Below are positions 3,833 through 5,053 of a stretch of DNA of 8,526 nucleotides, one piece after another; within the stretch, counting starts at the first letter, position 1, and every line of letters starts with the position of its first letter. The notes below the pieces were generated by a model. It did not search any database. It saw only the letters and a program-made list of their open reading frames with translations, and was not told the origin of the DNA. The translations under genes were made by a program, and so were the position numbers. The stretch comes from a virus. The stretch lies in UHGV virus genome UHGV-1374314. One strand, written 5' to 3'.

Positions 3833-5053
3833 ATGAAAAGGAAAATATTAATTCTTTCCGCTGTCCTCATTTCTCCTTTTTCACATGCTGAGTCATGGGA
3901 AAGCATTACTAAATCCACTTATCAAAGTTCTGCCTACGCTGAAAGTAAGCAAATAACCAATCAGGATGGCTCTAAGACAACGGTTTACTATATTGATGCT
4001 GCTATGCAGGCCTCCGCTTGTCAGGGTGCTAAATCCAGTGCTCAGAGTGTATTTACTCGGGTTAAACCAACTTATGAGGGTATCTGGCCTGATTCTGAAT
4101 TTCGTCTTGTTTTTACTGGTGATTGTACTTACAGCGATTCACCAGGGCAGAAGGATAAATATTGGTCTTTAACGGCTTATATTGTTGGTAATATTCAGCG
4201 TTCTGTTCCTGATGAAAAACCTACTGACCCGACACCAGAAGAAATTTGTGAAGCGAAGCCGCCAGAAGAAGGTGTATTTAATAATGTTGATTCATATGAT
4301 GGTGGTCGCTATATCTACTATAACGGCTGTGAATATGAGGCTACTGGTGTCATTGTTTGTCAGGGTGATGGTACTGTTTGCGCTGCAACATGGAAGCCTA
4401 CAGGTGCTGTAGCTGACCCCTCTGATAAACCCTCAACCCCCCAAAATGGTGGTGGTGAGTCCGGCGGTGGTGAGTCCGGCGGTGGTGAGTCCGGTGGCGG
4501 TAGTTCTGGCGGTGGCTCTAGTGGTTCCAGTCTTTCTAAAGGTGATATTCAGTCTGCGATCGAAGGTGCTTCACCCAAAATAGCCAGCGATATTCATGAT
4601 AAATTAACGGAGAAAGACACTTCATCAGATGATAAAAAAAATGCCGATGAACAAACCAGGAATAATATAAATCGTCTTGACGATTCCATTAACAATCTTA
4701 CGCGGGGGGCTGGCCGTTTTGCTGACCCTTCAGGTGGTGATTCTCGTTATGGAAAGGGCGACTCTGAATTAGATGGCGCTTCTACTTTGGCTGATTCTGA
4801 ATTGGGAATTGAAAAGGATTCTCACGGTGCTTTATGGGAAGCATTTTTAAATAAAGGTGCTATGCTGCCTAATTTACCCAATGGTAACGGCTGCTCTGAT
4901 TTTATTATTTTTCCCGGAGAGGTTTATCAGATTGATATTGGTTGCGATAAATTACTGACTATTAAAGATGTTCTTTCATGGGTTTTTTATTGCCTTACGT
5001 TCTGGTATGTCTTTACTTCTTTAACTTCATTGCTTCGCAAAGGGGGTGAGTGA
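3833..5053 (+). CDS. gIII: Adsorption/minor coat protein gpIII (receptor binding and entry), with Gly/Ser-rich linker
   Basis: Start at ATG 3833 ([19 protein letters not shown], signal peptide); the track ORF extends upstream into gVIII in the same frame. Cys-containing N-terminal domains, a [10 protein letters not shown] linker, and a C-terminal domain ...CDK...[17 protein letters not shown] resembling the Ff g3p membrane anchor. Confidence 0.9.
4448..4522 (+). repeat. Tandem 15-bp repeat encoding the Gly/Ser linker of gpIII
   Basis: GGTGGTGGTGAGTCC followed by two copies of GGCGGTGGTGAGTCC, then two degenerate units, encoding GGGES x3 and GGGSS-like repeats. Confidence 0.85.

Follow-up and report, generated by a model that had tools for sequence, protein, structure and literature searches.

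Gene III of a probable CUS-1/YpfΦ-type inovirus prophage encodes an IKe-type attachment protein with a repeat-encoded linker of variable length

The DNA analysed here (the window) is the whole 8,526-nucleotide stretch of UHGV virus genome UHGV-1374314, and our subject is its gene III (gIII; 3833..5053, plus strand), which encodes the gene III protein (g3p), or attachment protein, of an inovirus. In the list of open reading frames (ORFs), the coding sequence runs from the ATG at 3833 to the TGA at 5051-5053 and specifies 406 amino acid residues. An earlier note on the window had already placed gpIII at these positions, and they proved right: RefSeq annotates the same frame and start as 'attachment protein' in near-identical prophages, the exact protein is present in NCBI under the same name (WP_367087502.1), and PHROG 4150 matches the product (E 7e-262), in agreement with the literature, while a search of NCBIfam with g3p gave zero matches. 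A longer ORF starting at 3689 overlaps gene VIII; this upstream start was rejected as unsupported, the homologues beginning at the MKRK signal peptide. The signal peptide (residues 1-19; 3833..3889, plus strand, as are all the features of the protein described below) aligns with the annotated 19-residue signal peptide of IKe g3p, and its cleavage site is thus predicted by homology. Our analysis indicates that gIII is very probably the g3p gene of a CUS-1/YpfΦ-type inovirus prophage, and that the encoded protein has an IKe-type architecture whose Gly-rich linker is specified by an in-frame coding minisatellite.

The first domain (N1, residues 20-128; 3890..4216) has the fold of the IKe-type 'pilus-binding domain'. 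Residues 22-125 matched the Pfam family PF21443 'G3P pilus binding domain' (E 8e-25; score 87.4 bits, cutoff 27) over profile positions 2-105 of 105, as expected of an IKe-type N-terminal domain, and residues 20-128 matched the structure of the IKe pilus-binding domain, 4eo0 (E 1.2e-25), in a sequence search of PDB. By BLASTP, N1 was 46% identical to IKe, 47% to I2-2 and 45% to PEar6, and residues 20-128 had no significant match in the g3p of M13 and If1. An AlphaFold2 (AF2) model of the protein was built on 41 homologues and compared with PDB by using Foldseek. N1 was modelled confidently (predicted local distance difference test (pLDDT) of about 87-93 for the block, as against less than 50 across the signal peptide), and the first Foldseek match was again 4eo0 (template modelling (TM) score of 0.95, target-normalised; root-mean-square deviation (rmsd) of 1.1 Å; 106 columns). 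The domain holds one conserved Cys pair (C63 and C98) and is presumed, by analogy with IKe, to bind the primary receptor.

The second domain (N2, residues 129-195; 4217..4417) consists of a short Pro-rich hinge and a TolA-binding domain. PF05357 'Phage coat protein A' was detected at residues 135-176 (26 bits against a cutoff of 20.8), residues 130-195 matched the IKe TolA-binding domain 4eo1 (E 3.6e-25), and residues 137-225 matched all the structures of Ff N1 (1g3p, 2g3p, 1tol and 1fgp) together with the f1 pIII chain from cryo-electron microscopy, 8b3o (E 1e-10 to 7e-20). The BLASTP identity of N2 was 70% to IKe, 71% to I2-2, 67% to PEar6 and 31% to If1, and residues 137-193 were 51% identical to N1 of M13 over 57 residues (E 6e-16). 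The block had a pLDDT of about 80-87 in the model, for which 4eo1 was the second Foldseek match (TM score 0.88, rmsd 1.1 Å), followed by the N1 structures of If1 and Ff. IKe, I2-2 and PEar6 all share its four Cys residues (C139, C166, C176 and C183); the 41 homologues without exception have C139 and C166, and at least 90% of them have C176 and C183. With PF05357, 4eo1 and the four Cys residues, the domain shows the features of the TolA-binding domain of an IKe-type g3p, and judging from its sequence it is clearly homologous to N1 of Ff and If1, the TolA-binding domain of those phages.

The C-terminal domain (residues 236-406; 4538..5050) is the helical virion-cap and assembly-termination domain, as suggested by BLASTP, 8b3o and the model. 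Over 170 residues its identity was 52% to IKe and 54% to both I2-2 and PEar6 (BLASTP), compared with 36% to M13 over the last 58 residues and 29% to If1. The chain 8b3o aligned at residues 196-403 of the query, and its match with an E value of 7e-20 covers Ff N1 as well as the C domain. In the model the domain is helical with a beta-hairpin at residues 357-369, and its Cys pair (C354 and C371) is invariant across the 41 homologues. A hydrophobic membrane anchor, followed by a basic RKGGE tail, was read from the sequence near the C-terminus (4976..5038); the anchor is nearly invariant across the same homologues and aligns with the C-terminal helix of f1 pIII. The Cys pair, the hydrophobic anchor and homology to the pIII C domain are thus all present.

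In the alignment, IKe, I2-2 and PEar6 have every one of the nine Cys residues of the window protein. The order of parts is a signal peptide, N1, a Pro-rich hinge, N2, one Gly-rich linker and a C domain with its anchor; this is the architecture of the IKe type and not of Ff. The alignment, and the restriction of predicted disorder to residues 206-235 in the model, indicated a single Gly-rich linker and a short hinge without Gly repeats between N1 and N2, as in IKe. An Ff-type protein has its TolA domain first, at the very N-terminus, and contains two Gly-rich linkers, whereas here the homologue of that domain lies at residues 129-195 and a single linker is present. A counterpart of Ff N2, the domain that binds the F pilus, was not found in the protein, since the matches to 1g3p and 2g3p cover only chain residues 5-88 (Ff N1 and the first linker). 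The earlier note had described the N-terminal 200 or so residues as not recognisably those of Ff and the C-terminal anchor as Ff-like. The former holds for residues 20-128, which have no Ff match, and fails for residues 137-193 with their 51% identity to M13; the N-terminus is also not novel, as both of its domains match solved structures of IKe G3P and both exceed the Pfam gathering thresholds. The latter is true but weak, given 36% over 58 residues against 52-54% over 170 residues to IKe, I2-2 and PEar6. From the identities per domain (51% for N2 against 36% for the C domain, both to M13), the most Ff-like part of the whole protein is therefore the TolA-binding domain, inside the N-terminal 200 residues, and not the anchor. 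The further suggestion that the receptor specificity differs from that of Ff was supported: because the F-pilus-binding N2 of Ff is lacking, a primary receptor other than the F pilus is likely. High identity to a g3p of known specificity, which the note had regarded as the finding that would speak against it, is reached by the TolA-binding domain (70-71% to IKe and I2-2) and only moderately by the pilus-binding domain (46-47%).

The linker (residues 204-232; 4442..4528) is rich in Gly, Ser and Glu, has a pLDDT of 28-45 in the model and is the sole length-variable segment of the protein. Its DNA contains 2.9 exact tandem copies of the 15-bp unit GGTGGTGAGTCCGGC (encoding GGGES) at 4451..4494, a period-15 self-match of 44 nucleotides. 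Tandem Repeats Finder extended the repeat to 4451-4515 (4.3 copies, 86% matches), and 4495-4522 consists of diverged units of a 12-bp type (GGCGGTAGTTCT and GGCGGTGGCTCTAGT). The run has 29 self-matching positions, whereas 2000 shuffled sequences averaged 6.4 and never exceeded 10; it is not a chance feature. Exact 15-bp repeats had been proposed for 4448-4522; a 15-bp repeat is indeed there, but it is exact only at 4451-4494 and degenerate up to 4515.

The same note had expected that the linker varies in length between isolates by repeat number, and we found this to be the case. When the best g3 match was taken from each of 47 complete E. coli genomes, 22 distinct lengths (1203-1386 nucleotides) were obtained, and all but one of the 47 differed from 1221 by multiples of 3; the exception, of 1247 nucleotides, is from the error-prone EC5502 assembly. 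We then dissected 16 genes of close relatives, namely those of the window, HB37, KE48, EC23, 1368KP, HUM3355, UM146, eight contigs that encode one common allele of 410 residues, and one contig of a metagenome-assembled genome (MAG). In all 16, the N-terminal flank of 203 residues and the C-terminal flank of 174 residues are constant, and the linker has 23-84 residues, all length change being inside it. The differences are whole in-frame units of 15 bp (GGGES), 12 bp (GGSS) or 30 bp, and the units carry distinct internal patterns of TCT and TCC. Two protein clusters at 90% identity hold the window protein (682 and 165 member sequences), and a count of GGES motifs, which takes in SGGES variants, gave 2 to 11 units of the GGGES type in their members. 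Sister clades (83-85% identical) show a like variation with GGGDT units, as in IKe. The linker DNA is thus a short coding minisatellite that gains and loses units in frame. Replication slippage or unequal recombination is the presumed cause, and the resulting length polymorphism, wide in nature, leaves the folded domains untouched.

Some of the copies deserve separate mention. One prophage copy of KE48, with the shortest linker (23 residues), belongs to a record of 385 kb (NZ_CP141085.1) whose label is that of a plasmid and not of the chromosome. The MAG contig (JARKOR010000214.1, 25 kb), with a g3p 99% identical to that of the window and a linker of 28 residues, is assigned to 'Candidatus Nanosynbacter'; it almost certainly comes from an enterobacterium and was binned with this Saccharibacteria MAG in error. 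EC5502 has an array of 13-15 copies (15-16 matching places per record), and the 50 kb inspected (NZ_CP092647.1, 4940000-4990000) contain six units with frameshifts and truncated genes; these defects are most likely uncorrected long-read errors or mis-assembled replicative-form DNA and not real pseudogenes. The array was therefore dropped as a measure of linker variation within arrays.

The three domains have evolved at different rates. Among 67 homologues, N1 is the most variable domain (identity falling to 26-34% or becoming undetectable), and N2, which holds 45-93%, is the most conserved in the family as a whole. The ratio of nonsynonymous to synonymous substitution rates (dN/dS) was estimated from the comparisons in which dS was not saturated (APEC E19057, Izhakiella and Rosenbergiella) and was 0.13-0.17 in N1, compared with 0.04-0.06 in both N2 and the C domain. 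On these estimates, all three domains are under purifying selection, with N1 about three-fold more relaxed. The pattern would fit a variable host-range or primary-receptor domain paired with a conserved domain for the TolA co-receptor. Three E. coli prophages (H97-H99) match only the 3' half of g3 at the megablast level. An exchange of the N-terminal module was ruled out in APEC E19057, the one of the three that was inspected, which has a full IKe-type g3p with identities to the window protein of 83% (N1), 88% (N2) and 94% (C domain), its gene having merely diverged further in the 5' half. Rearranged forms were also seen: in a chimeric ORF, P0020, the first 300 or so residues of g3p continue in frame into the C-terminal part of a Zot-like gI product, indicating a deletion derivative of the prophage, and P0063 (508 residues), with the G3P_pilus-bind and secretin Pfam domains together, is either another rearranged prophage or a mis-annotation.

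Around gIII, the window has the classical inovirus order gII (1917-3011), gV (3023-3340), gVII (3343-3429), gVIII (3544-3786), gIII, gVI (5053..5394, plus strand), gI (5395-6489) and gIV (ending at 7762), so that gIII lies between gVIII and gVI within the morphogenesis module. The start of gVI overlaps the stop of gIII (TGATG); its product, assigned to DUF5455 from RefSeq in identical neighbours and from Pfam PF17537 at related loci, is g6p, the partner of g3p at the virion tip. Minus-strand cargo and regulator ORFs occupy the left side of the window and two small ORFs the right side. Between gVIII and gIII there is a putative stem-loop (3796..3814, plus strand; AGGGGCA-ctcgt-TGCCCCT, then TTATTAAA) with a GC-rich stem of 7 bp, and IKe carries an annotated stem-loop or potential terminator at the equivalent position. 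The z-score of the fold was not significant and the terminator scan gave no call; as a terminator it was thus not accepted, and it is kept as a candidate stem-loop only.

A megablast search of the whole window against a phage collection gave only short patches (gIV of IKe and PEar, and a match of 48 nucleotides to the If1 intergenic region); nucleotide similarity to named phages was therefore uninformative, and searches at the protein level were needed. By tblastn, the best phage g3p sequences were those of I2-2 (54.8%), PEar (53%) and IKe (52.8%). Of 5426 complete E. coli genomes, 47 contain the element, with the window covered to at least 80% and an identity of about 99%; among them are F11 and UM146, which are of the extraintestinal pathogenic E. 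coli (ExPEC) type. The element adjoins hipBA in UM146 and F11, and HUM3355 has three tandem units. Direct reading of positions 1-36 revealed a dif-like junction with a XerC arm (11/11), an enlarged spacer and a XerD arm (10/11); the imperfect site is GGTGCGCATAA, an 11-nucleotide spacer and TTATGTTGAAA, and the exact dif of E. coli was not found in the window within 3 mismatches. A GC-rich hairpin (38-72) and then an inverted XerC-like arm (about 86-98) follow, and the dif-like site with the inverted arm would fit the attP of YpfΦ, for which paired inverted Xer sites have been described.

The published organisation of YpfΦ and CUS-1 is that of an 8.7-kb phage integrated at dif, with tandem copies and a variable pair of ORFs on the attL side (PMC4266046). 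The window shares this organisation, as a dif-integrated and often tandem inovirus of 8.5-8.7 kb with a minus-strand module of RstR-like and cargo genes and two small 3' ORFs. The g3p of CUS-1, from E. coli O18:K1:H7, has been named PuvA, and the morphogenesis genes of YpfΦ are YPO2276-2278 (PMC4266046); from gene order, gIII would correspond to puvA and YPO2277. Near-identical copies (more than 98.7% at the nucleotide level) have been reported across many Enterobacteria (2023; PMC10354491). Members of the same g3p cluster come from E. coli, Salmonella, Citrobacter and Klebsiella, and one of them is labelled 'MULTISPECIES [Enterobacterales]'; a scan of genome contigs gave four loci, none of them from Y. 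pestis or the species representative of E. coli.

Further observations concern the variable parts of the element. The segment at 100-984, with minus-strand ORFs of 123 and 155 residues, is the cargo on the attL side; it is absent or replaced in most of the prophages that are otherwise 99% identical, in which coverage of the window is only 83-89%, and related units carry AbiJ/Abi_C, Fic, a zinc-binding protein of the ECs_2282 family or helix-turn-helix proteins instead. In F11 (NZ_CP076123.1, 1646700-1680000), at least four filamentous prophage units lie in a row downstream of hipBA. Two are CUS-1-type units with differing cargo ORFs, and at least two more have gII and gV with similar annotation and the same lengths but another structural module (a putative g3p of 520 residues, DUF2523, another Zot and another GspD); the array represents the modular exchange of an entire morphogenesis block. 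Positions 27-98 of the window are about 94% identical to an unannotated stretch of 72 nucleotides on more than 400 mostly conjugative plasmids of E. coli and Klebsiella, possibly a plasmid Xer or multimer-resolution site. The 'major intergenic region' of If1 contains a stretch 95.8% identical to the 48 nucleotides at 1043-1090, which may be a shared origin or packaging element; the remainder of the window is unrelated to If1 at the DNA level.

From what is reported for Ff and IKe, in part reportedly by Jakob et al. in 2012 on IKe G3P, infection by such a phage would proceed as follows. N1 would dock the virion tip on a primary surface receptor, N2 would then bind the C-terminal domain (domain III) of periplasmic TolA, and the C domain would insert in the inner membrane and open the particle on entry. 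The C domain would also anchor g3p together with g6p in the virion cap, and during assembly it would cap, terminate and release the virion, in line with the structural model of the f1 virion cap (PMC10175506). The linker would tether the N-terminal domains to the virion tip and, being disordered, leave them free to move.

Several points weigh against our reading. The CUS-1/YpfΦ assignment depends on gene order, the location beside dif, the published identity of about 99% and the 'MULTISPECIES' cluster member, and for CUS-1 on the review by Derbise and Carniel. No receptor of YpfΦ has been identified, and deletions of pilA and psaA were without effect (PMC4266046). The name 'pilus binding' for N1 is an analogy at the level of the fold only, and on sequence grounds its specificity cannot be transferred from IKe. 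Slippage is a presumed mechanism, deduced from the structure of the repeat units.

Two alternatives to parts of the reading were considered hard to sustain. That the differences in linker length are sequencing or assembly artefacts seems scarcely credible. The error-ridden EC5502 array, with frameshifted g3 copies and its length of 1247 nucleotides, shows that such errors occur, and many g3p entries in the databases are 'partial' (186-217 residues, ending at the linker; proteins P0078, P0080 and P0082-P0088), so that short-read assemblies appear to break systematically at the coding repeat. However, artefacts would not account for 46 of 47 lengths in steps of 3, for whole units of 15, 12 or 30 bp with distinct TCT/TCC patterns between constant flanks in independent complete genomes, or for the like variation in sister clades with GGGDT. 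It is also improbable, though less so, that the main selected role of the protein is host fitness or virulence, as PuvA, and not phage infection. Interruption of puvA was indeed accompanied by reduced fitness of E. coli K1 in vivo (review, PMC4266046), but a polar effect or one on phage production would explain this signature-tagged mutagenesis phenotype equally well, all the functional features of g3p are conserved and under purifying selection, and disruption of a morphogenesis gene abolishes particle production in YpfΦ (PMC4266046).

As for the receptor of N1, conjugative pili of the IncN/IncI2 type, bound at the tip as by IKe and I2-2, are an unlikely candidate; only plasmid-bearing cells would then be infected. 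N1 shares the fold and 46-47% identity with the N-pilus-binding domain of IKe, and the architecture of the whole protein is identical to that of IKe and I2-2. Nevertheless, the hosts reported for YpfΦ are three Yersinia species (Y. pestis, Y. enterocolitica and Y. pseudotuberculosis) and E. coli TOP10, a laboratory strain, with no receptor named in the literature (PMC4266046), and the PEar phages have the same N1 fold yet infect Erwinia amylovora. Because N1 is the fastest-diverging domain, with an identity to IKe too low for the transfer of a ligand, and the hosts are without known N or I2 plasmids, we did not transfer the N-pilus specificity. The chances are about even that N1 instead recognises a chromosomally encoded structure common to Escherichia, Salmonella and Yersinia, with N2 and TolA carrying most of entry in a low-efficiency mode. 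A mode of this kind has been put forward for IKe, in which the TolA site is permanently exposed. The wide host distribution of the phage group, with the same g3p cluster in four host genera, and the high conservation of N2 would fit this possibility, as would the low and variable infectivity reported for YpfΦ (PMC4266046), although purifying selection on N1 shows functionality and not a ligand. We put forward more tentatively, as possible but rather doubtful, the combined proposal that the receptor of N1 is a chromosomal structure of Yersinia, Escherichia and Salmonella other than a conjugative pilus and that the hypervariable linker length tunes reach and infectivity. If this were true, N1 would be a concrete handle on the receptor of YpfΦ.

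Everything found here lies within known biology and matters little beyond correct annotation: descriptions of the CUS-1/YpfΦ prophage group go back to 2002-2007, RefSeq contains the protein, and both N-terminal Pfam families were built on the solved IKe structures, so that protein and architecture were already known. Recognition of an IKe-type g3p is a rational start for finding the receptor of a phage linked to the fitness of Y. pestis and ExPEC, for which N1 could be used as bait, and these prophages might be typed by their g3 linker, which is highly polymorphic (22 lengths among the 47 E. coli genomes).

Among known systems, the closest in protein architecture are the G3P of IKe and I2-2 (Lineavirus; 4eo0 and 4eo1), with the same number and order of domains, signal peptide, nine Cys positions, C-terminal anchor and single Gly-rich linker of five-residue units, and with both N-terminal folds superposing at 1.1 Å. 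The overall identity is, however, only 53-55%; the linker has 29 residues in the window protein against about 55 in IKe and I2-2, which use GGGDT and GGGST units different from those of the window; the carrier is a dif-integrating prophage of 8.5 kb with cargo genes as opposed to a non-integrating phage of 6.7-6.9 kb; and IKe uses N and I2 pili, whereas the window phage was assigned no pilus. The G3P of the Erwinia phages PEar1-6 is likewise of the IKe type (53% overall identity) but belongs to a phage of Erwinia amylovora and is 45% identical in N1. The Ff protein (M13, fd and f1; 1g3p, 2g3p, 1tol and 8b3o) shares a TolA-binding domain, a homologous C domain and a Gly-rich linker whose coding DNA repeats 15-bp units of the GGGSE type; it differs in having the TolA domain first, then the F-pilus-binding N2, and two Gly-rich linkers, whereas the window protein has the presumed receptor domain first, with an unrelated fold, and one linker. 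PuvA of CUS-1 and YPO2277 of YpfΦ occupy the same gene position in a dif-integrated, tandem inovirus of 8.5-8.7 kb with minus-strand cargo and regulators and two small 3' ORFs, and units about 99% identical occur in ExPEC-type E. coli; the cargo ORFs on the attL side (about 100-984 in the window) vary between copies, and the linker of 29 residues is one allele of many.

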